The translations under genes and the position numbers were made by a program. A model generated the notes under the pieces. It was not told the origin of the DNA and did not search any database. It saw nothing but the letters and a program-made list of their open reading frames with translations. 30,131 bases of DNA, taken from Patellaria atrata CBS 101060 (lineage: Eukaryota). Below are positions 6,700-30,131 of this stretch, in pieces. Numbering within the stretch: position 1 is the first letter of the stretch; each line of letters starts with the position of its first letter. The DNA lies in NCBI GenBank assembly GCA_010093705.1, contig MU006091.1, positions 1,798,001 to 1,828,131 of the forward strand, in the 5' to 3' direction.

Positions 6700-7719
6700 G
6701 CAAGCTTACACTAGAAGCAAATCCGGCTATCTTGATGAGTGCAAGGCACACGGTCCTGTTTGATGCCAGGGTTAGCATTAGACATGTAGGGTGGAGGAAG
6801 ACCTAGGCCCCGCAGCAAATATTAGAATTGATCTCGTCCATAAGTAGTGTGCTGTGCAGATGAAAGTCCTCTATACAGCCCAATGGCGGGCTAGCTGCTC
6901 AACCATGCCGTAAAAGCACGATCATGATCCTTGGTGCTTAAAATGCTTATCTATCATCACCGGTCAATCACTTATCATTGTAACACAAATGGTGGGGTTA
7001 AAAGGACACAGTGTAGACGTGCTACAAGTCTGCTAGGCATGTATATGAGTGAGCTAGTGGGGGACCTTCTCAGCTTGATTGTGTGCTCGCCATTTGCTTT
7101 ACCTTGTTCTCGGCCTCTTTGGTTTTTGCTACCATCGTCCTCGTGCCGAAAGGAGACGTAGAGTTGCCGTTGTCAGCAATGAAGTATAAACCCGGAGGAT
7201 TGCGTTAGAGACCCGAGGAGTAGTCTAGTGTAGTCTGAAGGAGTATACTGTACTATAGAAGCATGGATACGGGAGAACCACGAAAACCTGTTAAGTGCGG
7301 CTCCTGAGAGAGATTGGAACCAATAGTATACCCCTCTATCATAGCCGTCTACAAATCGGTACTTTTGTGTATAACTATGAGCGGCGGTACTGCTTTGTAT
7401 GACCATAAGCCGCGGTACTTTCTTAGGTTACATCCACAAAGCATAGATTCCTGCTGGATACAAACAATGCTTTGATAGAAGCGTAAGCAATTTCATGACA
7501 TGCTTCTTGCTTATTTACAGTGAGCGAGGGGCTGGTCACCGACCTTGCATGTCATCCGATCTGGGCCGTTTCGCAGGCAATGTGGTGGCTTAATAGCCCT
7601 TACAGTCGATCTTGCTAACAACGAGAAATGCGACGCCACCGTGAGGCGAGAATATTAAGCCAACCATGAATGAGGATGAAGTAGTGGAGCGGTATTGTCC
7701 GTGCAGTTTTACCAAACGA

Positions 7720-7726
7720 TATAAAA
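7720..7726 (+). promoter_or_regulatory. Candidate TATA box of the flavin oxidase gene
   Basis: TATAAAA about 70 bp upstream of CACCATG at 7795. Confidence 0.4.
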
Positions 7727-7794
7727 GATATCAGGGAACCGGACTTACCTGTCTTAGGTCCTACCTGCAGTGTGCTAACAGTCGGGAGTTCACC

Positions 7795-9645: not shown

Positions 9646-9914
9646 TGGTGGAACTAGACGATTGAAAGCTATTATTTCGAGAAAAAGCCTCCCTGAGAGT
9701 GGAACCTACCTCAAGGCATGAATGAATGCTGGTGTAGCTTATTAAGTCAGAAGCTCTTAACGTTAGTTAAAATAAGATACACGAGTTCTGCCAAGACACC
9801 TAACCGAGTTTCGCCCGACCCTCTTCTAATGCAACATCCATCATCATCGGATATCATGTATCCCTTACTATACTGTACGAGTAGCACTGTGTACCCTCAA
9901 TTCATTCCAATTCA

Positions 9915-10905
9915 TTAACATGCCATATCAAGTAGCAACTTTACCACCTCATCATACCCTTGTGACACCGCACAATAGAGCGCATCCTTTCCAACCGTGT
10001 CACGCGCCCGCGGATCCGCACCGTACAAAAGCAGCAACGCAACGACTTCTTTATTGCCCAGCTCCGCCGCGACTTGGAGCGCCGTACGGCCTTGCTCGTC
10101 ACATTCATCCACTGCCGCGGCACCGCGCTTCAGCAACGTTCGCACGATTTTTCCGTTTCCTGCCTTGGCGGCGACGTGCAATAGTGGCGGCAGCGGTGGC
10201 AGCGGTGGCGATGGCGAGAGCGCGAGTGACGGTTCCAACCTTAATTCGGTATTCTTCGCCTCGAGTTTACCAGTTTGACATGGCAGCGTAGCCCGCTGCT
10301 CCCGGTGCTGTGCAGCTGCAGAGGACTCGTTTACCAATACTGGCGTGGGGCTTGGCTGTGGGGTCGACTGGATGTGGTTGGAGTCCTCTGTCATGAAACT
10401 CGGAGAAGACAGCGTGGTGGACGAAGGTGAGGATAAAGATGCTGGTGAAGGATACCAGTAACCAGTATTCTGCGCATACACACCCTCATCTGCATGATTC
10501 ATCCCAGGGGAGAAGAGATCTTGCTGGAGAATTTGGTTTATGCACCATGGGTCATCTCCCTTGTACACAATCCCGATGTCCGTATCCAGATCCGTGGTAG
10601 GCATCAAATTCCCTAAAAATTCATCCTGGCTTTTCATCTTCAGCGCTCTTCGTTCTACAGAGTCACGTTAGCAAGCATTCCATTCCTAAGAGTAGTTGCT
10701 TTCGAACTACAGATCTTGAATCCTCACCCCGAAATTTCCTCTGAGCAACACGATTTTGTAACCTCCTACGTGTTGAAACCGTCGGCCATTTTCCTTCGAT
10801 CTGGAAATTTTCAAGCGGGGGAGATAACATCCAGGCTGTCTTCGACGAACGGGTAGATTCTATGAGATCTGAAGGATGCGCACGATGGGTTTCGTAGACC
10901 AGCAT
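9915..10905 (-). CDS. Pathway-specific transcription factor with bZIP basic region and C-terminal ankyrin repeats (bANK / TOXE-like architecture), about 305 aa; exons 10905-10728, 10654-9915
   Basis: Basic region STRRRLQNRVAQRKFRERR completed across intron 10655-10727, with no obvious leucine zipper. Ankyrin repeats LLHVAAKAGNGKIVRTLL, GRTALQVAAELGNKEVVALLL and GKDALYCAVSQGYDEVVKLLL. The start codon could be the downstream Met. Confidence 0.88.
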
Positions 10906-11584
10906 ACCGCAGGTCGCTTGTCAGACCATCTAGGAGTAGGATTATTTTAAAGAACCCATTGCAGTCACTACTCATCTGAAGTTTTCAGCGTCGCATCTTC
11001 TTGCCGCCTCGACCCGAGAGGAAACCGAACAAGTTGTCTTATATGCAATGCACTATCTATTCATCTTGGCGCGAATCGCTACAGAAACGGCCCTACTATC
11101 ATTTACTGGGAAGAAGTGCGTTCGTGTTCTCTTCGCTGCCGTATTCTCTATCCACGGTAACTATGAATACCTTACGTTATGGTAGATGTTTGATTTATTA
11201 TGTTTGCTTAAGATTGTGCGACCCGAATTTCATCAAAGGCTGAACGATTGTTGGTTCGGACGTACTCCGTACTGAATGGGGCAGGAGGATGTTTTATACG
11301 TCTCGCCCACCTCCACGCCCTAGGCACCCGCCAATCTTGACCCTATACATCTCTACGACCCACGCACCTTCTATCTAGAACGAAGGGGACCCACGCATCT
11401 TCTATCTACAATATTCACCGAGAGGACAGGAATCGCGGGTTGTACCCTCCTCTCGTGGTTACTGGAATAGGAGTAGGAATGCTGGTAATACTAATGGTAT
11501 AAAGAGAAGGTGATTGTCGCACGGGATAGTTACCCTAAAGTTGAATAGTATGTTGTGCAGCATTAACATCTGATATCCCGCTAT

Positions 11585-12541
11585 CTATAATCGTTCTGTA
11601 CCAAACGCCCGCTGAAGAAACGCAACCTGCGCATCAAGTACCTTCTCCGAATCATGACCACTCATGATATTCATATGCGCTTTATTTGGTACGGTATGCA
11701 ACAGTTTCGGCTCTGACAGAGCGTCATAAACCAGCTCTTTCTGAAGATCCGCCGGCGAGATCAAATCCAACTCCCCTGTCACCACCATCGAAGGTGTCGG
11801 GGTCACAGATTCCAGCAGCGGGAAAGGTTGAAAAGCAGCGATGTGGTAGTAGCTGCTCAACGTGGTTTCCGGTACGAAATTCGGCTGCAACTCGACGGCC
11901 CGTGTGATGATATTGCCCACATCTTCCTGCTCAAAGCCGGTACCGAACCCTGCCGGTTGCTCTCCTTCATCTGTCAACATGGGAAGGTACACAGGTCGAT
12001 TACCGGATAGGCGGGACTCTCGCTCCTTCATCGATTTAGCCAGGACTTGTCTCCACTTGGTGAAATGCCAGATGGTCAGCGGTGAGATGGCAACAACGGC
12101 CTTGGCGCGCTTATCGAGTGCTGCTGCGCACAGGGCTACCATACCGCTGAATGAGTAGCCCCAATAGGCTATGCGCTTGGGATCGACCATGGTGTGCTTT
12201 TTGAGAGACGTCAGCGCGTCGTGATAGTCCTCGATGTTTTTGACGGGGTTGGTTTCGTTTCGCGGCATACCATCGCTCGCTCCAATTGATCTTGGATCGT
12301 AACTCAAGACGGTGAAGCCCGCAGCGAAGAAGTATTCTGCCACATCAGAAATGATCGTCTCCTTTGTCATGTTGAACTGTATCACTTTGTTAGAAGAGCA
12401 CTACGCTGCACAGTCGGATCCGTCTTTACATACCCCGGGAGTCATAATTATAGCTGGACCTCTTCGGGCTGCAGGGAAGAGCCAACCTCGAAGTGTGAGC
12501 CCATCAAGGGTTGGGAAGCTGAAATCCTCTCTCCCTTTCAT
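11585..12541 (-). CDS. Alpha/beta-hydrolase, trans-acting polyketide thioesterase/thiohydrolase, 299 aa; exons 12541-12434, 12376-11585
   Basis: [23 protein letters not shown]..., [11 protein letters not shown], nucleophile elbow WGYSFSG, candidate acid in GELD and His in KAH. Divergently paired with the PKS, an arrangement seen in HR-PKS clusters with a stand-alone releasing hydrolase. Confidence 0.9.
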
Positions 12542-13259
12542 GGCGTAAGGAGCAATTCAAGAAAAGATCTTCGATGTGAGCTGGTGTAGCTGCGGATGCC
12601 AGTTAGTACGATACAAACAATACATAAAATGCTACTTAGGGTTCCTAGGCATAAATCCTATTTTGTAATTGTAAGTTCATATCGTGGCCATTTTGCAGAC
12701 TTGGAATATTCTCACTGTTGTGTAACGGAAAGATGCGTAAGATGATCCCCATAATACGTAGCTTACTATGCCTTGCTTGAGGTCGCCTCGTGAACCACCT
12801 TACGGCATCCACTAAGAGTATTAAATGCTTACCGGCAGATCATTGGATGTCAACGTACGATCATGCAAGTAAGCTTGTTACATCTACGAGAGTGGATATA
12901 CTTAGGGCTGCACATAAGCCGCATAGACCATGGAACGGCTTGTGAATTTGTATCAAGGACGTTGATGAAATTCGGGATCACAGGTTCATGAGCATATGGT
13001 AAAGTCCCAATGAAGAGAAGTGGCTACGCTAACTATCAATGCTTGAATAAGATAGAGACAAAACCTTACAGCGGTTGATGAAGCACCTTATGGCCGCTAA
13101 ACATAGAAGTAAGCAATGGTCTTACGTCTTGTTTCTAATCATCTATTAGGTTAATTCTAAATCTATCTCTACACCCCTTCATTGTCTGGTTGAGAAGAAA
13201 ACGTTATTGACAAGGCTCACTCCAAAAGACTTCAATGTTGAACAGATGCAACCTTCACA
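12542..13259. promoter_or_regulatory. Divergent promoter region shared by the thioesterase and PKS, rich in CTTAC/GTAAG
   Basis: Head-to-head ATGs at 12541 (-) and 13260 (+); ten CTTAC/GTAAG copies counted by eye. Confidence 0.7.
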
Positions 13260-16200
13260 ATGGTGATTCACAGCGCATCCACGAGCTACTCAAGTTCGGC
13301 GAATTCAACAATCACCAGCAACTGTTCCAGTGATGATGGACTTACCGGACTGCAAGATGTGGCGGATATACGTGGCCCTGGCCATCGTACCCAAGTGCCT
13401 ATCGCCATTGTTGGTATGAGTTGCCGTCTCCCTGGTCATAGCAGCTCCCCAACAGCTCTGTGGGACTTTCTCCAGCGAGGTGGAGTAGCAAAGAATGAGC
13501 CACCAGCGTCGCGCTTCAACCTCGCTGGCCATTATGACAAGACAAGACGGGCGCGAACCATGAAATCTCCTGGTGGTATGTTCATGGAGGATGTGGATCC
13601 CGCAGTTTTTGACGGTCAATTTTTCAATATAAATCGGGTGGACTGCATCGCCATGGATCCGCAGCAACGTCAACTTCTGGAAGTCACATATGAATGCTTG
13701 GAAAATGCCGGAATACCACTACAGACGTTAAATGGATCCAAAACGGGAGTGATTGTCGGTGCAAACTTCATCGGTGAGTGCTGCCCTATACCGTTCAGTT
13801 TTATTCCCATACCCTTGACTAATTGTCTCCAGACTATGCGGCCGTCCAGAATCGTGATCCAGAGGATAGGGCTGACTCTATCACAATCGGGCTCGCCACG
13901 TCAATTCTAAGCAATCGAATCAGCCACTTCTTGAACTTGAATGGCCCAAGGTACGTACACGGCTATAAAGCCATCAACGAACCGGAAACTCAGTACTGCG
14001 GAAGTTCATTAGCTTACTCTTGTTATCTCGCTCTAGCATGACATTAGATACCGCTTGCTCAGCGAGCTTAGTCTCCGTTGATGTTGCCTGTCGCTACTTG
14101 GATAGTTTCCAGGCGGATGGGATGATCGTAGGAGGAGCGAATATGTGGCTTACTCCAGAACACAACGAGGAAATCGGCATGATGCACATGACACAATCTG
14201 CGTCGGGAAAGTGCCATAGCTTCGATGAAAAGGCAGATGGGTACGTTAAAGCTGAGGGAATCAACATCATTTATCTTAAAAGACTGGACGACGCCATCCG
14301 TGACAACGATCCGATACGGGCCGTTATCCGAGGAACAGCTTCCAACGCGTCGGGTCGCACTGCCGGTCTTGCAAATCCCAGCGCAGATGCTCAAGCTGCC
14401 GTTACCAGAATGGCGTATAAGAATGCTGGTATCAGCGATTTTCGTGCAACACAATTCCTCGAGTGTCACGGAACGGGTACCCTAGCTGGTGATCCAATCG
14501 AGGTGAAAGGCGCCGCATCTGTCTTTGGAGCTGGCCGTTCGGACGGGCAGGAGTTGGTAATTGGGTCAATTAAAAGTAATATTGGCCATTCCGAGGCAGC
14601 CGCTGGCCTCTCGGGTTTGATCAAGGCAACACTTGCTGTAGAGCACGGCATCATTCCTGGAAATCCTACTTTTACCAAACCAAACCCTAAAATCGACTTC
14701 AAGGCATCTCGTATCCGCGTCAGCCGGACATCCGTCAAGTGGCCTAGCGGAGCATCTATCCGACGGGCCAGCGTCAACTCATTCGGGTTTGGAGGTGCAA
14801 ACGCTCATGCAGTGATTGAGAATGCTATCACTTCTCCACACATCTCGTCATTCCAACGTGTGACGAAAGATTTCTTCGACGACGAGGATGATGAAGAGGA
14901 AAAGGAAGAGGAAGGGGGTACAGAACGCACAATGACACCCAAAGTGTTGGTCTTCTCAGCCAACGACCCTCTATCCCTTCAGAACTACATCAAGGCGTTA
15001 TCCTCTCACCTCCTTAATCCTGTAGTGTCGATTGATATTGAAGATTTAGCATATACACTCTCTCAGAGGAGAAGCCAACACTACTGTCGAGCGTTTTCTG
15101 TCACACGTTCTAGCAAGGGATTACTTGATGAAGAAACCATTATGATGGGAAAGCAGGCACCGTTGCCACCTCGAATTGGCCTCGTATTCACCGGTCAAGG
15201 CGCCCAGTGGTCTCAAATGGGTTCGAATCTAGTGAGAGACTTCCCATTTGCACGGAAGGTTATCGGTGATTTGGACAAAGTGTTACAGACTGTGGAAGAG
15301 CCACCTCAGTGGTCCCTGCTTGAGGAGCTCACTGCCGCTCGAAGCAGCGAAGTTCTCCGCCAGCCTGAGTTTTCGCAGCCGCTGGTAACTGCATTACAAT
15401 TGGCACTTCTAGAGGTTCTCAACAACTGGGGTATTCGTCCTCACGCTGTTGTGGGACACTCCTCGGGTGAGATTGCCGCAGCTGCCGCAGCAGGACTTAT
15501 CACATATGCCGATGCAATCAAAACAGCATTCTATCGCGGACAGGCTGCCAAGAAAGTAGTCACTTCTACCGAACCTGTGGGTATGCTAGCGGTAGGCGTT
15601 AGTCCTGATAAAATAAAGAAGTATCTTCAATCAGAAGAAGGCAACGTCCAGATTGCGTGTTACAACAGCCCAGACAGTTTGACCATGTCAGGCACTGTTG
15701 CCGCCTTGGAAAGCCTCCGCATTCATCTTCAAGCAGATGGTCATTTCGCAAGAATGCTGCTGGTTGACCTGGCGTATCACTCTCAATATATGAGAGAAAT
15801 AGGAGTCATATATGAGCAGATGCTACTACGTGACCAGCTGTTCCACAATCAACCCAGTAGTCCTCAACCAGATGTGCAAATGTTCAGTTCCGTTCTGGGG
15901 AGGTTGATGCAGGCTGATGAAAAGCTAGATGCGGCATATTGGAAGAAGAACATGGTCTCACCTGTGCAATTTACCCAGGCCACGTCAGAAATGCTCCGGA
16001 ACGTCCAATTTGGCGCGAACTTTCTGATCGAACTCGGCCCAAGCAATGCGCTCTCTGGCCCGATCGCGCAGATCAAGAAGAACATCAGCGACACTGTCGC
16101 TAGGGATACCGTATATGTTTCAGCGCTTAAACGCGGTGCTGACTCGACGCTCGCCATGTATCAGACGGCTGGCCAGCTATACCTTGCCGGTGGCACTATC

Positions 16201-19200
16201 GACTTGAGTAAAGTGAACATGATAGACAAGCATTCTGCTAAACTTATTGTCGACCTACCTAATTATGCTTGGAACCACTCAAACCGATATTGGCACGAGA
16301 CCAGGGCCAGCAAAGACTGGCGTTTCAAAAAATTCGTTAACCATGACCTCCTTGGCTCCAAAGTCCCTGGGACCGATTGGCGGGCGCCTTTATTCAAGAA
16401 AGTACTGAAGGTAGCAAATGTCCCCTGGCTACGTGACCATAAGTTAGGCAGTGAGATTGTCTTCCCGGCAGCCGCGTATGTGTCGATGGCTGTAGAAGCT
16501 ATGTATCAGACCGCAATGTCGACACACTGGGACCATCAGGTACCAACTCGCTATCGATTCCGGTTGAAAAATGTGCAGCTGCTTCGAGCTCTTGTGTTGG
16601 AAGAAAATGGAGACGTTCGCTTAACACTGGCTTTAACACCTATTAAGGGGTGCTCCACGCGATCCTGGTACGAGTATCGTGTGTGCTCAGTGCAGGAATC
16701 GCTCCAAAACGACCCAGTGCACAGTACCGGTTTGGTGTGCGTTGAGACCAACTATCAGGTGACTAACCACCAAATTGAGAATATGGAACCGTTAGACTTG
16801 CCCACGCCTGCTCACGTGTGGTATAAGGCACTGGCTGATCTCGGATATAATTTTGGCCCTTGCTTTCGTAAACATCTAATGGTAGAAGCAACTATTGGTA
16901 AGCGAAATACACGCTCCACTGTCAACCTTGAACCTCCGCCGTCCATCCCCCTCGGCCAATCCTACTACCCAATACATCCAGCTGTCATGGATTCCTGTTT
17001 CCAGACAGGATCGCCATCACTATGGAATTGCGAACCACCCACATCGGGAGGAACTGTACTTGTCCCTAAAATTATTGATAGCATCGTTGTTGAAGCAAAT
17101 CGAGACTTGCCAACAGAAGGTATAGCATTGTCGTCCGCAAAGTTCGTTGGTGTTGGAAACGCAGCGCTCCCTAGGAACTATGCCACAAGTGTGAAGCTAT
17201 TCGATCCTCGAGACGGCACCTTTCTTTTCGAGATGGAAGGTCTACATTCGGGCGAGATTGAGATGAGCGACATTGCGAATCCGGCCCATACATTCACTCG
17301 CCTTGCCTGGGATGCAGATGTCGACATGCTCATGGCAACATCCAACACAGTGGCTGTACAGCAGTGGCTTAGGACCAAAGAGCTTCATGACGTTTTCAAT
17401 ATGATAGCGCATAAAACCCCTGGCTTAAGTCTCTTGGAACTGAATTTGAATCCCGAAGATGTTTCCAGCCTCTGGTTAGAGGAGACAGATAGAATGAACC
17501 ACATCCGAACCGTTTGCTCACAGTATCATGTTGGCGTCCGGGATCCCAAAGCGGTCTTCCGTGCCGCAGAGCAAATGGCTTCACAAGTCTCCAGCTCACA
17601 GATACATGTCGTGGACACCTCTAAGGCTGCTGCCGTGGTCCCCGGTATTGGTTTCGACTTAGCAATCGTGAAGACAAATCCACAGACTAGAGCAGAAGCA
17701 GGTATTATTATTAAGAGCCTCGCTTTATCATTAAGGCCAGGAGCATATGTCATCACTATCGGAATCGACGACGTACCACTTAGAAGTCTCGGACAAACAG
17801 TTCGCCTCAGGGACAATATCCACCTCTGTCATTTTGAGAATAGAATACGAGAGGGCGCGCATCCGAATATCACTCATGTGAGCCTTCTTGATCTCGAAAC
17901 GCAGCGAACATGCGACATGGCTCAGGTTATTGACGCTCTCCGGGCAAATCAGTGGGTTATACAAACCAGCTCTGCTCCACTTAATGACATCAAGTCCAGC
18001 ACAGATGTTGTGGTCATCATCGACGAATTGTTTTCTTCCGTCATGGATTCACTTGAAGAGCGGCAATGGGATGTGCTCAAGTACCTCGCTGAGAAGCGTT
18101 GCCGTCTTCTTTGGGTCACCGCCGGTGCACATTTATCCGTAACTGATCCAACCAAGGCAGCTATTGCTGGCCTAATTCGCGCCATTCGCGCGGAGGAACA
18201 GCTAAGTTTCATGACTCTTGATGTTGAGAGTGCCACTGGCAATGCCACTAATGTAGCCATTTCGCTATGTCTTGAATGGCTGTGTGTATCCGACACCTTC
18301 AAGCGCGATGTTCCGAGGGATAGTGAGTTCGTTGAGCGAGGAGGTATCATATACACCAGTCGACTTGTTCCTGACGCTGCTCTCACAGCACTACAGAGCG
18401 ATCATGTCGCCGATAGGCCCACTGACATAACTGATCTGCATGCATGCAAAGCTCTCGTTCAACTACGCTGTGAACGTCTGGGCAACCTAGACAGTTTGCA
18501 TTTCGACGAGACACTATCCAATGAGGTCCCACTGCCGAATGGTTTGCTTGAAGTAAAGGTTTGCGCGGCGGGTCTGAATTATAAAGACGTCGTCGTTAGT
18601 ATGGGCACTGTTCCAGGAGACGAATCGCAGCTAGGCCATGAAGCAGCTGGTGTGGTCACGCAAATTTCTCCAGGCATATCAGATTTCAAGGTTGGAGACC
18701 GTGTTGTGGTATTCGGCAAGGGATGTTTCGCAAATCTGATACGAACTACCCCATCGCGTGCGTATCGTATTCCTGATAACGTGTCATTCGAAGAGGCTGC
18801 GACTCTTGCCGTGGTCTACTTAACAAGCATCTACTCGCTCTTTGACCAGGGCAATCTTTCCGCAGGAAAGACTGTTCTTATTCACTCTGCTGCTGGAGGC
18901 GTGGGTATAGCGGCCATTCAGCTTGCCCAGTATGCCGGAGCCGATGTATTTGTAACGGTTGGTACTCCTGAAAAGAGACACTTTCTCCAGTCGACTTTCG
19001 GCCTGAGCGATAACCGTGTTTTTGGTTCTCGCAATACGGATTTCGGTGATCAAATTTTAGCGGTAACAAATGGCCGTGGAGTAGACGTCGTACTCAATTC
19101 GCTCACTGGTGACATGCTCGATGAGTCGTTCCGCATCCTGGCAGATGGGGGTATCATGGTCGAGATCGGAAAGAAGGATATCCTAGAGCGTAATAGTTTG

Positions 19201-20731
19201 TCCATGAGGCCGTTCGACCGCAACATCTCATTTAGAGCAGTTGATCTGTCTCCCGAACGCACTCCCGATGCACTCGTGGCCCGACTCATGTCTAAGCTCT
19301 TTAAGCTCCTCATAGGTGGCCATATCAAGCCAATCAAACCAATGCACTGCTTTTCTTGGGCTGAAGTTCCGTCTGCATTTCGATTCTTGAGACCGGGAAC
19401 ACATATTGGTAAGGTTGTGCTGTCGGATGATCCCGATATAAAGATTCAGGTTCCGGTACGTGCAAAAGCCTAATTATTTCTAGCCATAGTTCTCCAGTAG
19501 CCCCAGCTAACTTTTTTATTGTTTTAGATTCGTAGAGCACCACCAAAACTTCATTTCCGTGACGATGGTTGTTATATGATTGTTGGCGGGCTTCGTGGTC
19601 TCTGCGGTTCTCTTGCCGTCTACCTAGCTAAAACAGGAGCCAAATTCCTTGCTGTGATTTCTCGCAGCGGATATTTAGATGACAAGTCACAGAGGGTTAT
19701 AAAACAGATTAAAGCTCTCGGAGCGTATATCGATCTTCTCACTATAGATGTTACGAAGGCAATAGAGGTCAAGAACGCTTTCAAGCAGACAACCAAACCC
19801 GTTGCCGGTATTATCCAAGGTGCTATGGTCCTACGGGTAAGTTTATATTTATAATTGATACCAGGCATTCTCCTAACGTATTTATCACTAGGACCGAGCC
19901 TTTGATCAAATGACACTCGCCGAGTACCATGAAGCAATCCAATGCAAGATCCGTGGTACATGGAACCTACATAATGCTGCCGAATCGCTAAGTCTCAATC
20001 TGGACTTTTTCACTCTTCTCTCAAGCATTTCCGGCATCATCGGCAACCGCGGCCAGGCCAACTACGCAGCCGCGAATACATTCCTCGATGCTTTCGCCGC
20101 ATTCCGTCACTCCCGAGGGCAGGCTGCCTGCTCAGTCGATCTCGGTGTCATCGAGGATGCCGGTGTGATCGCTGAGAATACCAAACTACAAGCTCAGTTT
20201 GATGGGCGGATATTTAGGGGCATCAATGATGGATTGCTGCGTAAAATTGTCGGTCTATCAGTACTTCAACAGGAGAGTCCTGCGCCCAGTCCAGCGGCAC
20301 AAACGCAAATTATTACCGGCCTTATCACTCCTCAACCATCTTACTCGAGCTTGAAACGCGACGCACGTTTTTCAGCCCTCTTCACCAGTGATAAAAGCAC
20401 TGATGACGGTGATTCTGGCGCTAAAAGGGGAAACACAGAGGTGCAAATAGTGCTGATGATGTTACGGACCGAGTCGATCGACGTGGCAGCAAAGCTAAAC
20501 GCGGTGGTGGACTTAGTTAATGCGAGCTTCATGCGCATTCTACAACTTCCGGAGCCGATGGATCCAGCGCGCCCGTTGTCAGTGTATGGCATCGATTCCT
20601 TAGCGGCGGTGGAGTTACGGAATTGGGTGAGGACGGAGCTCGGTGCATTGGTTACGACTTTGGATGTGCTGAATGCTAGCTCGTTAAATAAGCTTGGTGA
20701 AAGGATTATAGCGAAGATTATCGGTGAGTAG
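13260..20731 (+). CDS. Highly reducing iterative type I PKS, KS-AT-DH-(no functional cMT)-ER-KR-ACP, 2399 aa; exons 13260-13773, 13833-13950, 14037-19455, 19528-19836, 19892-20731
   Basis: KS DTACSAS / HGTGT / GHSE; AT GHSSGEI and AYHS; DH LRDHKLGSEIVFP and HPAVMD; ER LIHSAAGGVG; KR GGLRGLCG, VLRD and YAAAN; ACP GIDSL. The SAM-binding GxGxG is missing (LLELNLNPED at the equivalent place). Four GT-AG introns give 7200 nt in frame. Confidence 0.96.
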
Positions 20732-20791
20732 GGAGAGATTAAAGCGTCAAGATCGAATATCTTGATTATTTCATAACTTAAATAGGAGAAC

Positions 20792-21088
20792 TAGCGCCTT
20801 CCATATAGCCTTTGCCAATGGATGGACACCTTTCTAAGTGACAGGAAAATGCAACTGGCTTTCAATGGAGAAAGGCAGGAAAAGTGCAACGTAGAGGTGG
20901 GAATACCACAAGGATCGCCGATCTCACCTATACTATTCCTAATCTATATTGGGGAAATCTGTAAAGACATTAAAGGGATCCAGAAACTGAGCTACGTTGA
21001 TGATTTTTCGGTAACAGTAATTTCAACGTCTGTTAAGAACTATGAAGTCACAACGATAGCAGATATAATCAGAGAGAATTCCTCATAA
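20792..21088 (+). pseudogene. Fragment of a non-LTR (LINE-type) reverse transcriptase
   Basis: RLPYSLCQWMDTFLSDRK...GIPQGSPISPILFLIYI...SYVDDF are LINE RT motifs; truncated on both sides. Confidence 0.85.
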
Positions 21089-21138
21089 GAAAGGGTAATA
21101 GTGAAATATTCTTCCTACAGCATAATGCGGTCAAATCC

Positions 21139-21407
21139 TGTTAGATGGTGAGGTTCGCTACCGGGTAAATGGATGCTTACTAGTTCAAAACAGTGGTGAA
21201 AACAATGGTATGGAACGGTAGCTTGAGACAGAGCGTCAAACCGTATTAAAACAGATCTCTGACGAGAGCACGGATCTGTGGTGTTTTATCTGTTCTCTTT
21301 CTGACCCAGTATCATTGTCAACTGTTCAGTATATAGTCCATATCTCTCTCAGTAGTTGCAAATCAAGCGATATATTCAGTGCACCTGCAGATCCAGTTTA
21401 TCTCACA
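21139..21407 (+). repeat. 5' LTR (269 bp)
   Basis: TG...CA termini (TGTTAGA...TCTCACA); both ends are matched by the solo LTR at 2392-2734. Confidence 0.88.
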
Positions 21408-21418
21408 GTTATGAGCCC
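21408..21418 (+). other. Primer-binding site
   Basis: GTTATGAGCCC immediately after the LTR, resembling the GGTTATGAGCCC PBS common in fungal copia elements. Confidence 0.7.
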
Positions 21419-21568
21419 GGACTTTGTGCTGTTTTGAAGCCGTACATCTTGCTCAATTTCGATCCGTTTATACTCATCTCATTTTGAATCGATATATCCG
21501 AATCTTTTGAAGTCAGCTGTGCTGCTCCACCGTTGTTTACATCCATCTCTTGTGCTATCAATTTAAAT

Positions 21569-24500
21569 ATGTCGACTTCAACAAATCCTTCGTCTCAAGT
21601 GGCCACAGTCACTCTGAAAGATGCCTCTGACTGGCATAATTGGTACTATCTTATCAAGAATCAGGCGGAAATGGAAGATATCTGGGACTATTGTGATCCA
21701 GATCTTCAAGAGAAACCTGAGTTACCATCATCACCGCCCCAACCGGCCAATGTGAAAGAATGGCTCCGTACAGGCACTCCACCAACTGGAGAGACCCAAG
21801 CATCTATGACCGGATTGTACACCTCGCTTAGAGCTAACGCCAGAGATCAATCAGAAAAGAGAGCCAAGATCGTGAAACTCTATTCTCTGATTACGAGTAC
21901 TGTTCCAGCCAGCAACCTACCGTTAAGTGAGGAGACGAAAGAACCATACACCCTTTTGAAGAAGCTTAAGTCAAGATTTAAGCTTGAAGACCGGACGATT
22001 CGGAACGAAGCATACAGCAAGTATCTACATCATCTGCGAACAATTAGAAAGAGAGATATTGACGCTTGGTGTACAACTTACCTAGGCTTGTATGAAGACT
22101 GCATCCGTTTTAAAGTCCCCGAAGTGGCCGGAGAAGGTCTAATTAGGGATCTACTAAACACTCTAGCCAAAACCTATGAACAATGGGCAACAGCCAAAGC
22201 TGTCAACGTAAACGACCAGCTCGACGCAAATGAAAAGGTCGAAATTTCGATGATCATATCTCAATTCCGCAATTACCACAAAGCCCAGACAATCAAAGAC
22301 CCAGCTAGAGGTGTGTTTGCTGCACTCCAAGGCCAGTCTCTCGATGAATCCACCACACAAGCTATTGTTTCCACGGCAAAGAAGACATCTAGAAATGACC
22401 GTCTTAAGAAATGCCTTTGTGGGAAAGACCACCGTTGGGGAGCCTGCCCTTATATCAATCCACGAGCTACAAAGCCAAAAGACTATTCTGAGACCACCCA
22501 AAAGCTCGTTGATACCAAGATTTTGGAGCTAAATGAGTGGCAACGACTCGCAATCCAGAAGATTCGAACATCTAGGCCAGAGAAGGCTAAAGATGAGAAA
22601 GAAGACGCCTCTAAATCTGATGACAATCGAAAAGGAGACATTGGTATGTTCGTTGGAGCAAAGTTTTCGGGTCCTACAGACATCGTGTTAGCGAATGCAC
22701 GTTCCTCTAACCAACACTGGCTTCACGACTCCGTTCTTCTTGATTCGGGATCTAGCATCCATATAACCAACGATCGGTCAAATTTTGAGATTGAAAGCTA
22801 CTGCGATAATCGATGGATTGAAGTAGGAAAGGGGTCATGCCAGATATTAGCGAAAGGCAGGTGGACAATTGAAGTTGAAGGACCAGAGGGTACCCGAAGA
22901 ATGATTTTCAGTGAAGCTTATCTCTGTCCGGACTTTAATGCCTCTGTTGTTGGTCTCAAAAGCCTTAGAAAACGGGGAGCATTTTGGAACCACCGTCGTG
23001 GCTGTCTTGAGTACGAAAACGGAGATATGATGTGCAAAGTTCTGGAAAAAGGCGACCATTACCTATTGAACTATAAAGATGTTGTTCAAGTCGGATCAGT
23101 ATTTGCTGCTCACAAATCAACAGACCCAAAACCTCCAGTAAGCGCAACAACTAGACGTTGGCATCGGATTATGGGCCATGCCGGGCCTGAGGCAATCAAG
23201 CATCTTACTACCGATGTAGTAGGAGCAGAGATAGATGGCAGAGGACTATCTACAATTGAGTGCGAGGTTTGTGCTGTCTCAAAGGCAACAGAAATTATCA
23301 GTCGACGCCCTTTAGACGAGCCGGCAACACGGATTTTCCAACGGGTATCCTATGATATTGTATCATTCCCACCGGGCTATAATGGCCATCGTTATCTCAG
23401 CCACTACCATTGCGACTACTCTCACTGGATTGATCTAGAGACGTCAGCGACAAAGCCAGAGACGAATGAAAGTAATCGCAAGTACTTTAAACGCACCAGA
23501 ACTCAGTTTGGAGTTGAAATTCAAAGATTCAAAAGTGACAACGAGACAGCGTTAGGAAAAGCTCACAATAGGCTTTTAGAAGAGACCGGCACGATAGCAG
23601 AGCCTTCAGCTCCGGATACTCCAGCCTAGAATGGTGATGCTGAACGCTCTGGAAGGGTGATTATTACCAAGGCTCGTTCCATGTCCACTGATTCTATGAT
23701 CCCTTGGGAGCTTTGGCCGGAAATTGTGGCAGCAGCGGTGTTCATTAACAATCGGACACCTCATCGATCGCTTAACTGGAAGACGCCATTTCAAGTAGTA
23801 ACAGGGCGAAAACCGAATATATCTCACCTTAAAACGTACGGCTGCAGGGCATACGTACTCGATAAGCATATTCCACGCTTACAGAAGCTCCAGCCAAGAG
23901 CTCTGATTGGTTATCTTGTTGGATACGATTCCACAAACATTTACAGGATCTGGGTTCCCAGCAGGAAACGAGTGTTTCGATCTAGAGACGTTAAGTTCGA
24001 CGAAGATCGGTTCTATGATCCAGCAGAGCTGGATTTCGGTCATTTACTGCGTGAGAGAGCTGACGAGGTGATCGTTATGCTTGAAGTTCCCCCTATGATC
24101 ACTTCAATTGAAGAAGTTGACGAACCAGTGCTCCTTAAAGATATCGTGGACCCTGAAGCGACTCAAGTTTACAATTTAAAGCAGACGATGCAAGTAGCAG
24201 TTGGAAATACTAAAGATGGAAGGGTGGACCAGTCCGGAACATTTCCTACCCCTCCTCCAGATACACCCTCAATCTTAGAACAACCACAGCCGCCAGCTAG
24301 GACAGCTGGAAATGCTGAAGAAGCGCAAGAAACGAGTCTTAGTGGCCCTACGGATTCAGCTGATGCTATGGAAGACCCCGAGGCCGCGCCGCCAAGCTTA
24401 TCACTCTCCGACCATCCACGACAGAGGCAATCGTCGTCTTCTTTAAGGACAGATGAAGAAGGAGAGGTAATAGAGGTAGAGAGGGGCCAAGATAAACCCA

Positions 24501-26224
24501 CACAGGAAGAGCTAGTGGAGCAGCAGATCCAAAGCGAGCTTCATACTAGCTAGAAGAGGGGTTCAGGGGTAAATACCCGTCGGAATCGGGCCCCACGGGC
24601 CATAGAGATTTCCTCCCGGATGGCCGAGACTAACATTCTACCGGAAGGATCAAAACGAGTTCGGAAACCACCAAGAAACAACGATCCAGCTGTATTCTAT
24701 GCTGAACATATAGCTAAACAGCTGTCAGATCTGAAGACGACTCACCAGGACGATTTGTCACCTCCTCCAAAATACTATAAGGACGTTTTGAAGCATCCGT
24801 ACAGAGCTCAATTCCTTGCAGCTATGGAGCTGGAGATGTCTGCCCTTCAGAGTCGTGGTACGTATGAGCCAATCAGAGCGTCGGAGATCGACAATACTAA
24901 GCCTCTTCTGCCTCTTGTCTGGGTATTCACGTACAAACTAGACGTGGAAGGTTTTTTGACGAAAACAAAGGATCGACTTTGCGTCAGAGGTGATTTACAC
25001 GAGACGGAACTCGATACGTACGCAGCAACTCTCGCCGTACGTACAATACGGGCCATACTAGCCATAACAGCCGCCTTTGATCTTGAAGCTATCCAATTGG
25101 ACGCTCTAAATGCCTTTGTCAACAGTAATCTGGACGAAGAAGTCTACTGCAGATATCCGGACGGATTCCATAAGCAGGGACTTGTTATGAAGCTTCACAA
25201 AGCTTTGTACGGACTGAAGAGATCACCTCGGCTATGGTATCAGTTGTTTTCAACAGCTCTAGAAGAGCTGGGGATGATGCCGGTTCCTGGTGTCAATTGC
25301 TTGTTTACTGATGGCACCATATTAGTGTTTTTCTACGTGGATGACATAGTGCTATTAGCACGTTCTCAATTTGCGACGAAGCTCCACGAATTCAAAGACA
25401 AAGTGATGGGAAAATTCCCCATGCGAGATCTTGGAGATATCCAGTACTTTTTGGGCATACGTATCGTTCGCGACAGACCAAATTTGAAAATATGGCTGTG
25501 TCAAGATGCCTATATTGACAAGCTCATAAACAGATTTGAGCTTCAAAACTGCCGGATGAGACATACTCCCCTTTCCTCAGAAGAGCTCGTTCAAAACGTC
25601 TCAGACGAAGCACCCCCAAGCCGTATATCGGCATACAACACTCGGGTCGGCTCTATCGGCTGGTTGAGCAGCATAACCAGACCAGACGTCGCCAAAGCCC
25701 ACAGCAAGCTGTCGGAATTCCTTAAGAATCCGTCAAGCAAGCATCTCGAAGCTGCAAATCAAGTGCTGGCTTATCTGAAGCATCACAAGCACCTGGCAAT
25801 TCAGTATGACGGAACGTTGACTGGAAGGGTGTTTGCAAGCTCTTCTGACGCCTCATTTGCAGATAACCCCGACCGGCGAAGCTCTCAGGGGTTCCTCTTC
25901 TCATTATTCGGTGGACCAATTGACTGGCAGGCCTCAAAGCAGAAGACAGTCACCACATCAAGCATAGAAGCTGAGCTGTTAGCTCTCAGCCTCGCTACCA
26001 GAGAGATGGTAGCATGGAATCGTTTCTTTGAAGCGATCGACTTTGATCCAGAGCACCGAAGCTCAATTTGGTGCGACAATCAACAGACGATACGGCTTCT
26101 CAAAGCACCTGAACCTCAGTTAACAACAAAACTCAGACACGTGGATATCCACCACCTGTGGCTGAGGCAAGAGGTTCAGCATGACCGGATAAACGTAGAA
26201 TGGAAGCCTAACTGCAATGCTTAA
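21569..26224 (+). pseudogene. Copia gag-pol polyprotein, single frame with two in-frame TAG stops (23627-23629, 24551-24553) and truncated RNase H
   Basis: Gag knuckle CLCGKDHRWGAC; protease LLDSGSSIH; integrase WHRIMGH...CEVC, SYDIV, KSDNE, PA*NGDAER; RT KALYGLKRSPRLW and YVDD; RNase H SDASFAD and IEAE. Track ORFs 21533, 23657 and 24620 are all in the same frame. Confidence 0.93.
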
Positions 26225-26316
26225 ATCAGTAAATGTATAACTGATTTAAATGTGGACCGTGCGCACCTGAAGAGCAGGGGTATTACTGATTTAAAAAACT
26301 TGCTGCAAATCAGTAA
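26221..26316. repeat. Two pairs of perfect 10-bp inverted repeats built on AAATCAGT
   Basis: TTAAATCAGT (26221-26230) / ACTGATTTAA (26240-26249) with a 9-nt spacer. TTACTGATTT (26283-26292) / AAATCAGTAA (26307-26316) with a 14-nt spacer. Confidence 0.9.
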
Positions 26317-26635
26317 AGGGTAAATCTTCAAGTAAATGCAGATATAATTCGATAGAAAGGTAAAATCAACCTTACGCAATCAGCCGGTCAAATTAGATTT
26401 TTTATATCGCTTCTAGTTCCTTTAATGCAGCCTGCGATATAAATCGCTGGTCAGGAATGTTAATGGGGTCACTTTCTATCTATGCGTCCCTACTGGCGCT
26501 ATCCCTCCAACCAATTAAAAGAAGAAGAAGGAGAAGAAGCGAAGAAAGTCCGAATAGAAGAAATGGAATATCTCCCTCTCTCTATTCTCCCTCTCCTTTG
26601 TTGTAACTCCCTTTTCATTAGGCTTATCAATATTA

Positions 26636-29600
26636 ATGGATCAATTTAATACCCTTTTTATTCATATTCCATGCTATCGTGTCGCCGTTTGTAAAGAATG
26701 TCACGTTGGTATAGTAAAGGCCAATATCGCCCGCCACCTAGACACTCGACACGCGAATTTGACGAGGAGCACACTGCAGGAAATCGCCCGGGCGGCTAGA
26801 GCGATCGAGGAGCTGGCGGAAGGTGAGGAACAGGTGGTATACCCGGGCCCGGACTCCGAGCCCGTGCCCCACCTTGCTGTGTGGCGCGACGGGCTAAAGT
26901 GCACGCGGTGCGGTTATATCCGCCGAACTATACAGGACGTGCAGTCGCACTGCCGCGAGCAGCACGGCTGGGCGAACCCGCGGAAGAGGGGCCGCATGGC
27001 CAAGGGCTGCCGGGCCGAGGCCAACGCGATGTGGGTGGAAGGGGTGCACTGCCAGAAGTTTGCGGGAGCCGGCAAGCTAGGGAAGCTGTTTGAGGTTAAG
27101 AGCCAGGAGGAGAAGATAGACGCGGGGAGAGGTATACCGCAGGACGAGGGAGTCGAGATAAGCCAACAACTAGAAAGAATGTTTATCAAGGTGTCTAGAC
27201 AGCTAGAGAAGGCGGAGGAGGATGCGTACTCGATCGTGGAGCCGGACAGTGACAGGTTCATCCCCAACACGTGGCTGGACAGATCAGGATGGGCAAAGCA
27301 TTTTGCCGGTTTCGATCGCACTTGGCTGCGCTCATTGGTCCAGAGGCCAGGAAGGCACGAGAGCGCGCTGACAAAGCTATGCTGGGCGGTTGAGAGTGTG
27401 ATATATAAGGCCCAGCGGTCATCGACAGCTGAGGTTATGGGATTGCCATCCATGAATTACATCAATAGAAGAGAAGCAGGGAATGATACTAACGAGAAGC
27501 CGTTAAACACGCGGCAGGCCGGCTCAACGATGATTAGATATAGTCGGGTCTGGGTCGGCATGATTGGCTACATCTGGAGGACATACAAGCTGGAAGCAGG
27601 CTTGCCGGCAGCGGGCAATGGCGTAGTAGAAGAAGACGGGGAAGAGGGAAGCGGGCATGAGCGTACTAAGAGGAGGCCAACGTACCGGCTGACAGGTAAG
27701 CAACAGGAATGCTTATCAGGGATTATTGATATAGTTAGAGAGGATAAGGATGAGGAGGATGGTGAGGGAAGAGAAGACGAAGAAGAAGTATACTATAAGC
27801 TCACGGCGGTAGAGGATGACGATTACAGCGAGGCTAGTGAGTATAACGTGGAAGACTTATTAGGAGAGGAGGAAGAAGCCCAGCTAGAGAGTAATACCTT
27901 AGCGTTCCTACTATCGCTGTTAGATCACCAGTTAAAGGATAGCGAGTATCAAAGCGCGCTTATCAGTGCCACGGCTGCATTCGGTGTAGATGCAGACCAG
28001 GGCTGGAAAGGTGTGCTCGCATACACACCTACGCTCTCAGCAATCATCACGGTCGCCAGGATGCTAGTGCTCTACCAGGCAAGACAGACCAGAATCCGGA
28101 GCATCGAGGAGATGATAGGGAGGGATGGAATTGACGGAGAGAAGGCACAAGACCTGGCGCCATCTCACTTCGAACTGGTGAAAGAGATGACTGGCCGATT
28201 TATGACGCTGACGGCTTTTGGAGGCCAGCCTAGTCCGATGGACTCGTTACTACGGCTGCGAACGTATGGGTTCAAGATTAGGTTCAATACCAACGCTGAG
28301 GGTAAAGTGGACTGGGCGGGGGACACGCTACTGTATGGCCATGTCAAGTTCACCGTTCCAGAGCTGCGATCGATGATCCATGGGCTGGTGGAGACAGCGC
28401 GGCTGGAACTGATGCAGGACCTGCTACTGCTAGACATGGATGAGGATGGCCAGGTTAAGGAAGGCTCGACAACGGCGCCGGCCATATGTTGGGACAGCCT
28501 GGTGGACAATCCGGCGGAGATGAAGGCCGGATGGAACCTCTTTAAAGATTCCAGAAACACATTTGGAGGTGTCGACGGCAAAGAGTGGCTGTCAGGGCGC
28601 ATGGTTAGGGAGCAGAGGCTGAGGCGACGGTTTATCAATAGCATAGCAAAGGACACGGCTGCTCCGGATGGCTACGGGATCGCTTGGAGGATAGCCCAGG
28701 TCAGGCGGTACCAGAAAGCAGGGAAATCGTTCCGCCAGAAGCTGCTTGTGCTGGCACATATGACCGGAGGGATGCCAGCGCGGGGGACCGAGATCGTCTC
28801 AGTCCAGTACATGAACAGCCCCAACGGGGAGGGTAGAGGGTTGTTTGTGGAGGATGGGCTGCTCGTCTATGTCACCAGGTACCATAAGGGCATCGGAGCG
28901 AGTTCAAGAGCCAAAGTGATCCACCGCTATCTACCAAGGGAGGTTGGCGAGTTGATGTTCTACTACCTCTGGCTGGTCATCCCGTTCCAGGCCAAGTTGA
29001 GCATGGCACCGAGCGGGAGCGTCGCAAGGCAGCCCAGCGCATTCATCTGGGAGCCAGCGGGGGAAAAGACGTGGGAAGGGCCGCAGCTCAAGAAAAGAAT
29101 GGGGAGAGCTGGAAGTCGAGAAGCCGAAGGGTCGAGCGAAGGTGATACTATAGCAGAAGATAAAGGTTTGGAGGAGACGGAAAGGTGGGATACTAACCGT
29201 ATAGGAAGAGCGCTACAGCAAGTATCTATAAGGTGGCTAGGAGTTAAGCTTGGCATCTTAAGCTGGAGACACTGCGTTAAGGCAATCTATCGCAGGTATA
29301 TCAGCGACGAGACAGCCCAGCACGCGCTGATAGAGAGCGATGGAGAGGAAGAGGAAGACGAGGCGGACAATCCATTTGACATTGGCTTTGGGCACGGGTC
29401 AAAGACCGCAGAGGCTGTTTACGGCAGGACGGTTGACGAGTCCCCATTTAGTACCGCCAGTCAGCGCTCAGCCCTACGTAAGGTTAGCAAGAGATGGCAC
29501 GAGTTTCTTAAGTTCCAGTCGACGCTAGAAGATGATGCTTATCGCAAAGGAAAGATAACAGCAAAAATAAAGAAGAAGGAAGCTATAGAGGGAGAGATGA

Positions 29601-30131
29601 AGAGGTGGAAAAGGTTACGAGCGGTTAATATCCGGGAGCAATTGAAGTTGCTGGTTGGGAGCGAGGCAGAGTTTAGGAGCGTCCAAAGACCGGCACTAGA
29701 GGCGATCATGCAACAGAAAAATCCCGTGGTCGTGGTGATGGGAACAGGCGCCGGGAAGAGTATGCTATTCATGCTACCGGCATCGTGCTTAATAGGTGTG
29801 ACAGTTGTCGTGGTCCCACTAATTTCGCTGAGGGCAGATATGAAGGCACGCTGCAGCCATGCCGGGATCGAGTGTGTCGAATGGGACAGCAGGAGGCCAC
29901 AGGAATGGGCCTCGGTCGTCTTGGTAACACCGGAGTCGGCGGTCAGCGAGGGATTTGGGAACTTCATCAACCGGCAGAGGTCGATGGGAAGGCTAGATCG
30001 CATTGTGGTAGATGAGTGTCATGTCGTGCTGGACTCGACCAAGGGCTGGAGGACGCGTATGCTAAGGCTACGGGAGCTAGTCAAGGCAGAGACACAGCTA
30101 GTGTATCTAACAGCCACGATGAGGCCTAACT
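26636..30131 (+). CDS. DUF3505-type zinc-finger + tyrosine-recombinase-like + RecQ-family DExH helicase protein (telomere-linked-helicase-like), more than 1165 aa, 3'-partial
   Basis: Hand-translated with no stop from ATG 26636 to the window end. Zinc fingers CKEC...HLDTRH and CTRC...HCREQH; WLDRSGW; TGGMPARGTE, YHK, SWRH and GHGSKTAEAVY. RecQ motifs FRSVQ, MGTGAGKS, VVPLISL, VTPE, VVDECH and LTAT. Confidence 0.9.
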   Translation, partial: MDQFNTLFIHIPCYRVAVCKECHVGIVKANIARHLDTRHANLTRSTLQEIARAARAIEELAEGEEQVVYPGPDSEPVPHLAVWRDGLKCTRCGYIRRTIQDVQSHCREQHGWANPRKRGRMAKGCRAEANAMWVEGVHCQKFAGAGKLGKLFEVKSQEEKIDAGRGIPQDEGVEISQQLERMFIKVSRQLEKAEEDAYSIVEPDSDRFIPNTWLDRSGWAKHFAGFDRTWLRSLVQRPGRHESALTKLCWAVESVIYKAQRSSTAEVMGLPSMNYINRREAGNDTNEKPLNTRQAGSTMIRYSRVWVGMIGYIWRTYKLEAGLPAAGNGVVEEDGEEGSGHERTKRRPTYRLTGKQQECLSGIIDIVREDKDEEDGEGREDEEEVYYKLTAVEDDDYSEASEYNVEDLLGEEEEAQLESNTLAFLLSLLDHQLKDSEYQSALISATAAFGVDADQGWKGVLAYTPTLSAIITVARMLVLYQARQTRIRSIEEMIGRDGIDGEKAQDLAPSHFELVKEMTGRFMTLTAFGGQPSPMDSLLRLRTYGFKIRFNTNAEGKVDWAGDTLLYGHVKFTVPELRSMIHGLVETARLELMQDLLLLDMDEDGQVKEGSTTAPAICWDSLVDNPAEMKAGWNLFKDSRNTFGGVDGKEWLSGRMVREQRLRRRFINSIAKDTAAPDGYGIAWRIAQVRRYQKAGKSFRQKLLVLAHMTGGMPARGTEIVSVQYMNSPNGEGRGLFVEDGLLVYVTRYHKGIGASSRAKVIHRYLPREVGELMFYYLWLVIPFQAKLSMAPSGSVARQPSAFIWEPAGEKTWEGPQLKKRMGRAGSREAEGSSEGDTIAEDKGLEETERWDTNRIGRALQQVSIRWLGVKLGILSWRHCVKAIYRRYISDETAQHALIESDGEEEEDEADNPFDIGFGHGSKTAEAVYGRTVDESPFSTASQRSALRKVSKRWHEFLKFQSTLEDDAYRKGKITAKIKKKEAIEGEMKRWKRLRAVNIREQLKLLVGSEAEFRSVQRPALEAIMQQKNPVVVVMGTGAGKSMLFMLPASCLIGVTVVVVPLISLRADMKARCSHAGIECVEWDSRRPQEWASVVLVTPESAVSEGFGNFINRQRSMGRLDRIVVDECHVVLDSTKGWRTRMLRLRELVKAETQLVYLTATMRPN

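Follow-up and report, generated by a model that had tools for sequence, protein, structure and literature searches.

The window analyzed here, the whole 30,131-nt stretch of contig MU006091.1 of the ascomycete Patellaria atrata CBS 101060 (positions 1,798,001 to 1,828,131), contains the junction of a truncated Ty1/copia retrotransposon with a subtelomeric unit. The unit carries a telomere-linked helicase (TLH) gene and reads toward the telomere. The copia element lies on the plus strand. Its 5′ long terminal repeat (LTR; TG...CA) was found at 21139–21407, with AATCC directly 5′ of it at 21134–21138, and its gag-pol at 21533–26209 in a single frame with only two in-frame stops (23627 and 24551). 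The Pfam domains Pol_BBD, rve, SH3_retrovirus, and RVT_2 were recognized in gag-pol. Among the Ty1/copia features tested, the 5′ LTR and the domain order (gag-protease-integrase-RT-RNase H) were present and a second LTR was absent from the window: no direct repeat of 21139–21407 was obtained in 20500–30131, where the longest repeat family was 28 nt at 71% identity.

The copia frame of 24620–26224 ends with ...RQEVQHDRINVEWKPNCNA. The reading frame gives ...RQEVQHDRINVEWKP and thereafter NCNA, and gag-pol is cut off in the RNase H after ...VEWKP, about 25–70 aa short. The C-terminus was aligned with 15 full-length relatives chosen from 120 listed. After W-x-P, all 15 carry (T/S)-x-x-M-(P/L/V)-ADG(L/M)TK, followed by about 25–70 more residues, and the window element diverged from them immediately past the Pro codon CCT (26207–26209). 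Further to the right, 26225–26635 showed 38% G+C with short direct and inverted repeats. An earlier reading made from the letters of this DNA (the sequence-only reading) had described the turn of the copia pol into NCNA* and AT-rich repeat DNA, the missing RNase H end, and the missing 3′ LTR, and all of these were borne out, the last within 20500–30131. The element is near-intact, with 1563 codons in one frame interrupted by the two stops, and its dinucleotide ratios resemble those of the polyketide synthase (PKS) gene in the same window. For these reasons, the truncation may be fairly recent.

Fungal chromosome ends have been known to carry TLH genes since about 1998–2002, and the TLH domain was reportedly defined in a 2009 paper by Rehmeyer et al. 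In their available parts, two studies characterize TLH proteins by C2H2 motifs together with RecQ motifs and a 'TLH domain' of ~250 aa (10.1101/2024.02.27.582403; 10.1101/2022.03.07.483234). Conservation of this domain is reported to extend to fission yeast tlh1/tlh2 (10.1101/2024.02.27.582403). The open reading frame of the window begins at 26636 on the plus strand and continues for 1165 codons without a stop to 30130, running off the window. Its N-terminal zinc-finger region (residues 7–111; 26654–26968) matched Pfam OrsD with an E-value of 3.5e-22 and holds two C2H2-type zinc-binding motifs; the near-invariant TLH residues are C19, H34, C89, C92, H105, and H110. A long conserved middle part lies between the OrsD region and the helicase core. 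Just N-terminal of the helicase, a conserved block at residues ~700–960 corresponds to the TLH domain. The RecQ-type helicase core (DEAD/ResIII) is represented by its first half at 29669–30124 (Pfam DEAD, E 9.3e-16; DEAD and ResIII at residues 1012–1163). RECQ5, RECQ1, RecQ, WRN, and BLM were the top PDB sequence matches, and Helicase_C was additionally present in the relatives.

At E ≤ 0.001, 880 TLH homologues were obtained among 7989 scored candidates, and most of them were about 1400–1700 aa long. The closest were 56–58% identical to the window protein, and those with names came from Dothideomycetes, Sordariomycetes, and lichen fungi. The window gene belongs to the TLH family, an assignment made from domain order, the telomere linkage of relatives, and the shared boundary. 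In the literature up to November 2025, as far as the available parts of the sources go, the function of TLH was called undetermined and TLH were treated as host genes (10.1101/2024.02.27.582403; FoTeR paper).

The left end of the TLH unit is discrete and is located at 26207/26208. It is formed by the 14-nt terminal motif CCTAACTGCAATGC (26207–26220, plus strand), and the same motif or a variant limits related units. The sequence-only reading was right about a discrete helicase unit with a defined left end and slightly wrong about its position, which it had placed at 26210–26216. It had also seen no telomeric repeats, a detail that called for correction: CCTAAC, a telomere-like word and permuted reverse complement of TTAGGG, abuts the copia coding sequence at 26207–26212. 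Short microhomology, a possibility it had raised, was supported. The first 3–4 nt of the motif (CCT, perhaps CCTA) overlap the final copia codon and fit both copia and the unit; the longer microhomology CCT ACT GCA would require a one-base shift. The same kind of boundary is known from Magnaporthe oryzae, where a sharp proximal 'near boundary', C/CCTAAC, was described in 2006 and, in the parts of that paper available, without a mechanism (PMC1635262).

The terminus was compared in 79 TLH-related loci (L001–L079) from a scan of metagenome contigs. CCTAACTGCAATGC with 0–2 changes was located 404–447 nt upstream of the ATG in six loci (L024, L039, L049, L051, L055, and L050, the last with the copy on the other strand), and L040 and L052 carry further copies at other distances. 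A variant, CTATCARTCHATGGG, occupied the corresponding position in L003, L004, L008, L022, and L024. In 15 aligned termini, the columns CTA, C, and AT were invariant or nearly so. Furthermore, where related units have differing left flanks, their likeness ended at C(C)TA(A/T)C, at a point 430–490 nt upstream of the ATG. Such a common limit was seen in L010/L027 (100% alike), L016/L017 (90%), L019/L021 (97%) with L020, L049/L055 (96%), and L003/L004/L022. The left flanks themselves were mutually unrelated and were not copia; tblastn with four copia polyproteins gave no match in the flanks of other units at E < 0.01. The terminal motif was therefore rejected as a copia remnant. Two further arrangements were observed at the termini. 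In L020 (1380–1420) and L021 (125–167), a terminal unit of 13–18 nt starting with CTATC is tandemly doubled, which recalls the tandem HAR-C units of M. oryzae. In L016 (843–887), the exact left terminus comes right after GGGTTAGGGTTA plus three bases, and here a very short remnant of a telomere may have received the unit.

The leader of the window unit, which reaches from the terminus to the ATG, measures 429 nt (26207–26635, plus strand), and in relatives the terminus lies 404–549 nt before the ATG. Two dyads lie within the leader. The first has perfect 10-nt inverted arms around 9 nt (26221–26249) and is kept across 15 units; the second (26283–26316), located by repeat analysis, has the same half-site with outward arms and 14 nt between them. 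Each unit has its own sequence for the inverted repeat behind the motif, and the right arm recurs about 45 nt downstream. Over the 10 arm positions of the 15 units, 82% of the cells were paired, compared with 58.7% after shuffling (0 of 500 shuffles reached 82%) and 33–53% when the partner was slid. Cells changed on both arms numbered 43, with 18 expected. In addition, a scan for CTAWC followed by a dyad was positive in 14 of 37 segments taken 370–620 nt before the ATG, even with several known cases close to the segment edge overlooked. The same scan gave 0 of 42–43 in each of four control segments, and 200 shuffles gave a mean of 0.22 and a maximum of 3.

The TLH domain was found to be of the tyrosine-recombinase fold. 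Its assignment in the window (28313–29635, plus strand) drew on invariant columns, a structural model, and fold searches. R716 (28781), K751 (28886), R878 (29267), H920 (29393), and Y929 (29420) were invariant in alignments of 40, 86, and 39 sequences, in the contexts ..PARG.E.., ..YHK.., ..WR(H/Q).., ..GH.., and ..(I/V)Y(G/A).., and identity among the 86 sequences was 30–60%. These catalytic-type residues, an Arg-Lys-Arg-His-Tyr set, follow the succession of catalytic positions in the tyrosine recombinase/type IB topoisomerase superfamily (Arg, beta-hairpin Lys, (His-x-x-)Arg, His/Trp, and nucleophilic Tyr), lie on suitable secondary-structure elements of the model, and are candidates for these positions. 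The AlphaFold2 model of residues 560–1000 had a mean predicted local distance difference test score (pLDDT) of 86.2 and a predicted template modeling score of 0.86. VIA-align of this model against 48,161 chains returned 28 chains with Z of at least 5, all of the tyrosine recombinase/type IB topoisomerase fold as judged by entry title or known fold class. They included Ndc10, MrpR, and SroF, which we take to be proteins of the tyrosine-recombinase fold. The best match was the archaeal Xer 4a8e (Z 11.2, root-mean-square deviation 3.3 Å over 174 residues), and the first unrelated chain followed at Z 4.6. Cre, XerA, XerH, the Brujita and lambda integrases, and type IB topoisomerases took the top ranks of Foldseek against the PDB. 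The recombinase-like domain that the sequence-only reading had assigned to the unit was thereby recovered by model and fold searches, and the predicted structure shows that the TLH domain folds as a tyrosine recombinase. The invariant residues suggest that it may be catalytically active.

Leads for the domain from a protein atlas were weak (0.82–0.84) and named Phage_integrase, NDC10_II, and Integrase_2. A search of a representative library with the domain profile yielded 5446 matches at E ≤ 0.001, and the 150 listed were all TLH-like, so that they gave no link to other recombinase families. For the region before the domain, Pfam on residues 109–559 returned nothing relevant. Residues 112–559 were modelled with a pLDDT of 77.8; their best match was the N-terminal domain of Brujita integrase (Z 5.0), with XerA at Z 4.5 and Xer at Z 4.2 amid many coiled-coil rows at Z 4.1–4.7. 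This modelled likeness to recombinase N-terminal domains is at noise level and is taken as a hint only. As far as the literature search reaches, the recombinase fold of the TLH domain is new: no publication linking TLH proteins to a recombinase was found, with subscription journals mostly outside coverage. The word 'recombinase' does not occur in 10.1101/2024.02.27.582403 or in the 2025 FoTeR paper.

The family is linked to telomeres. In 10 of the 79 loci (L010, L018, L019, L049, L051, L053, L054, L070, L074, and L075), (TTAGGG)n stood at the contig end downstream of the gene, 0 to ~5 kb after it, and in L070 the telomere repeats were added within the coding region. When the last 300 nt ahead of the telomere repeats were inspected by eye in these 10 loci, neither a conserved motif marking a right end nor an inverted copy of the terminal motif was seen. 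The stretches between gene and telomere were G-rich and C-poor. The TLH coding strand of the window (27000–30131) has a strong skew of G over C and of A over T, with a GC skew of up to 0.32, and the gene-to-telomere stretches of the relatives are skewed in the same direction.

Arrays of units were also observed. In L022, a unit with the exact terminus follows an older TLH gene cut near its C-terminus, and in L055 a unit comes after a TLH gene fragment. L024 has three nested termini before a unit and a further terminus after the gene of that unit at residue ~865–884. The spacing in L015 and L036 was consistent with the same pattern of a unit after a truncated unit. Moreover, in L075 the upstream fragment (aa 8–282) does not resume past the complete unit. 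A different arrangement was found in L050 (13–5024), with two TLH units tail to tail: the end of a plus-strand gene is followed by a minus-strand unit that is cut at residue ~456 and has its terminal motif at 5011–5024. The arrangement resembles two eroded ends that became fused. TTAGGGTTAGGG was met inside the helicase gene at L006:4010–4021 and L035:4254–4265; it was rejected as an interstitial telomere repeat and considered a coincidental mimic, since it encodes the conserved ..ALGLG...

As a boundary, the junction of the window is unexceptional and belongs to a kind already known, because chromosome ends of M. oryzae show the same picture. The sequence-only reading, a mobile unit within a retrotransposon, is better recast as the usual limit of a telomere-linked unit. 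There, a repeat with a 23-bp palindrome comes after the boundary, and terminal truncations are frequent, according to the available parts of the paper (PMC1635262). The window resembles M. oryzae in the C/CCTAAC proximal boundary and in the palindrome-bearing repeats after it, and distal truncation is frequent in the family. The window differs from M. oryzae, as far as the latter is covered by the parts available, in having one 14-nt terminal unit instead of a tandem HAR-C array, and in that its boundary abuts a truncated copia. With the same reservation, the TLH region I of M. oryzae and the TLH of Fusarium oxysporum and Botrytis cinerea are like the window in fingers, TLH domain, RecQ core, and telomere linkage.

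The explanation we favor, and consider probable, is the one-ended terminal addition of a TLH unit to a chromosome broken inside copia. A break behind the Pro codon of ...VEWKP, in a copia that was still nearly whole, would have cost the chromosome everything beyond it. The TLH unit would then have been joined to the broken end with its terminal motif, dyads, and leader, and with the zinc finger/recombinase-fold/RecQ gene directed toward the telomere, and it probably brought its own telomere. Under one-ended addition, the copia RNase H end, polypurine tract, and 3′ LTR would therefore have been lost and not displaced downstream. In our estimation, it is somewhat more likely than not that the unit of this window was joined to a broken end and extends to a telomere. 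We hold more tentatively, as a minority possibility, that the protein of the unit itself makes the site-specific joining step. In that mechanism, the terminal motif and the dyads would be the site of action of the recombinase-like domain, and CCT(A) would serve as the short sequence in common. Cleavage at the terminus would leave a 5′-OH on the unit, the fused helicase would unwind toward the chromosome tip, and the 5′-OH would be joined to a 3′-phosphotyrosine intermediate on a target sharing a few bases. The CCT(A) overlap fits this joining and also fits microhomology-mediated end joining.

Several observations weighed against this interpretation as a whole. The window stops inside the TLH gene, and whatever follows 30131, telomere or copia remainder, is outside the view. 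Other genes lie 1–8 kb downstream in L001, L005, L032, and L061, with no telomere in view, and include an AAA_12 helicase, a zf-MYND protein, and a hAT transposase. Copies with ragged ends or with longer left sides would, in the sequence-only reading, have indicated a deletion, rearrangement, or assembly join, and such copies were encountered in part. L005 and L006 are 5′-truncated, and L009, L070, and L077 are likewise 5′-truncated or rearranged. Members of the L060/L074/L079 subfamily remain alike for over 2 kb leftward of the boundary seen elsewhere. In this subfamily, the common sequence extends 2.0–2.4 kb upstream of the ATG, with a terminal-like motif at L079:448, and the extra sequence is perhaps the counterpart of the 'region II' of M. 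oryzae. With respect to the domain, the Foldseek E-values were weak (0.04–2, best 0.044). Pfam gave no recombinase match at E ≤ 10, Crypton and DUF3435 included, and a PDB profile search with 39 domains found no recombinase at E ≤ 10, its matches being at chance level. The first His of the classical HxxR is replaced by a hydrophobic residue; the resulting pentad is topoisomerase-IB-like. Inactive proteins such as Ndc10 have the same fold.

The other explanations differ in what follows the junction and in what made it. In the sequence-only reading, a mobile helicase unit was inserted internally into copia, and the RNase H remainder, the 3′ LTR, and a target-site duplication would follow past its right end. 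The discrete, conserved left end, the recombinase-fold domain, and the relatives lying away from a visible telomere with other genes downstream agree with a two-ended insertion of this kind. It is nevertheless decidedly unlikely, as telomere repeats terminate 10 of the 79 loci, no right-end motif was apparent by eye before them, and the truncated upstream unit of L075 is not continued after the full unit. Moreover, in the available parts of PMC1635262, the M. oryzae boundary is the edge of the terminal domain or subtelomere. A less remote alternative, which we still regard as unlikely, is end repair by the host without an element recombinase. Break-induced replication, end joining, or copying by way of RNA/cDNA would have supplied the broken end with a TLH end. 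A boundary element, replication origin, or transcription start would account for the sharpness of the boundary, and the fold would be a DNA-binding or telomere-maintenance module. Terminal truncation with sequence capture is documented at M. oryzae ends (PMC1635262), and Tlh1/2 of Schizosaccharomyces pombe are said to aid telomere maintenance without telomerase (PMC7074392), both as given in the accessible parts of these papers. CCTAAC could also bind telomere-repeat proteins, and the existence of inactive recombinase folds (Ndc10) suits a module of this type. However, the Arg-Lys-Arg-His-Tyr set is strictly invariant in 86 sequences at 30–60% identity, and the unit-specific dyads, co-changing on both arms, suggest binding by the protein of the unit itself. 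Copying driven by homology alone would not halt at one nucleotide in independent junctions.

An assembly mis-join at a repeat edge, with copia and the helicase unit not adjacent in the genome, would be in line with the absence of any read or contig across 26207 in the data seen. The only public run that matched the stretch, X1, did so as contigs and left most of it uncovered, and is uninformative on absence. One 1392-nt contig of X1 has 5 mismatches over 26207–26738 (99% alike) and ends exactly at 26207. Past 26738, it resembles the window from ~26959 onward in diverged form, about 220 nt (26739–26958) being missing. On account of this lack and the diverged continuation, the contig was regarded as another copy, a second paralogue; its ~220-nt deletion is not a multiple of three. 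A Logan contig of the same run stops exactly at 21407, the right edge of the copia LTR, as is expected at a repeat edge, and these contigs therefore tend to break at repeat edges. At the X1 depth of 6.6, the contig end at 26207 may mark a gap in coverage, and the window itself may derive from X1; both points count against the reading of one-ended addition. With its low depth and no contig across the junction, X1 gives weak support for the terminus. A mis-join remains highly improbable: the 3–4 nt common at the junction are presumably too few for an overlap or k-mer join, and the form of the junction matches the junctions in the 79 independent contigs and in M. oryzae.

One-ended addition can be compared with the mobile systems that share its parts. 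Cryptons and the Starship 'Captain' elements are DNA transposons of fungi with a tyrosine recombinase; Cryptons have no terminal inverted repeats, join where short sequences are held in common, and make no classical target duplication. Both share the eukaryotic tyrosine-recombinase fold with TLH, whereas TLH fuses this fold to a RecQ helicase and has one defined end, with a telomere at the other. Helitrons combine a HUH nuclease with a helicase, move by single-strand 'peel and paste', and make no target duplication; their termini are precise and have a hairpin or dyad close by. Their pairing of a DNA-cleaving domain with a helicase is an analogy only, since TLH differs in nuclease chemistry (3′-phosphotyrosine fold versus HUH) and in helicase family. 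In the HeT-A arrays of chromosome ends, each unit keeps an exact proximal end and has an eroded distal one. TLH units are like HeT-A/TART and, in the available parts of the FoTeR paper, MoTeR/FoTeR arrays in this respect. Unlike these telomere retrotransposons, TLH is without reverse transcriptase, and the 5′ end of its sense strand provides the attachment in place of a 3′ poly(A) or a telomere-primed end.

The Y′ copies of Saccharomyces cerevisiae are separated by telomeric repeats, and Y′-Help1 is not known to contain a zinc finger or a recombinase-fold domain. Y′ is similar to the TLH unit as a helicase-encoding subtelomeric unit that occurs at some ends and in tandem arrays, and in the accessible parts of the sources Y′ elements are described as 5–6 kb long and amplified upon telomerase loss (PMC1635262, PMC4522978). 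In addition, a study of B. cinerea reported, in the part available, a 'Helitron-like' repeat on the flanks of TLH genes (10.1101/2022.03.07.483234).

Upstream of copia, the window holds a secondary-metabolite cluster at 3951–20731, 5.5 kb from the TLH boundary. It consists of a P450 gene (3951–5099, minus strand), a short-chain dehydrogenase (5801–6289), an FAD/BBE oxidase (8123–9645), an ankyrin protein (9915–10637, minus strand), an alpha/beta hydrolase (11585–12385, minus strand), and a highly reducing PKS in pieces (13260–13910, 14020–19473, and 19910–20731). Transposon debris follows the PKS cluster. A 97-codon open stretch at 20795–21088, between the PKS end and the copia LTR, has non-LTR reverse-transcriptase motifs (..GIPQGSPISPILF..SYVDD..) and was judged by eye to be a fragment of a long interspersed nuclear element.

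Beyond this junction, it is possible, though rather unlikely, that TLH units are widespread one-ended 'terminal transposons' and not host genes merely near telomeres. The recombinase-fold domain would nick the conserved left terminus beside the unit-specific dyads, and the RecQ helicase would peel the strand toward the tip. The free 5′-OH would be joined to a cleaved or broken target with a few bases in common (here CCT/A in copia), and the target chromosome would receive a complete subtelomere and telomere as a cap. What merits follow-up is the recombinase fold, together with the terminal architecture seen across the family. The fold of the TLH domain with its invariant catalytic-type residues, the boundary motif shared by distant subfamilies, and the unit-specific dyads jointly provide a concrete, testable mechanism by which the units could reach new chromosome ends. 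It bears on the evolution of subtelomeres, on how broken ends are repaired, and on how terminal genes are lost.

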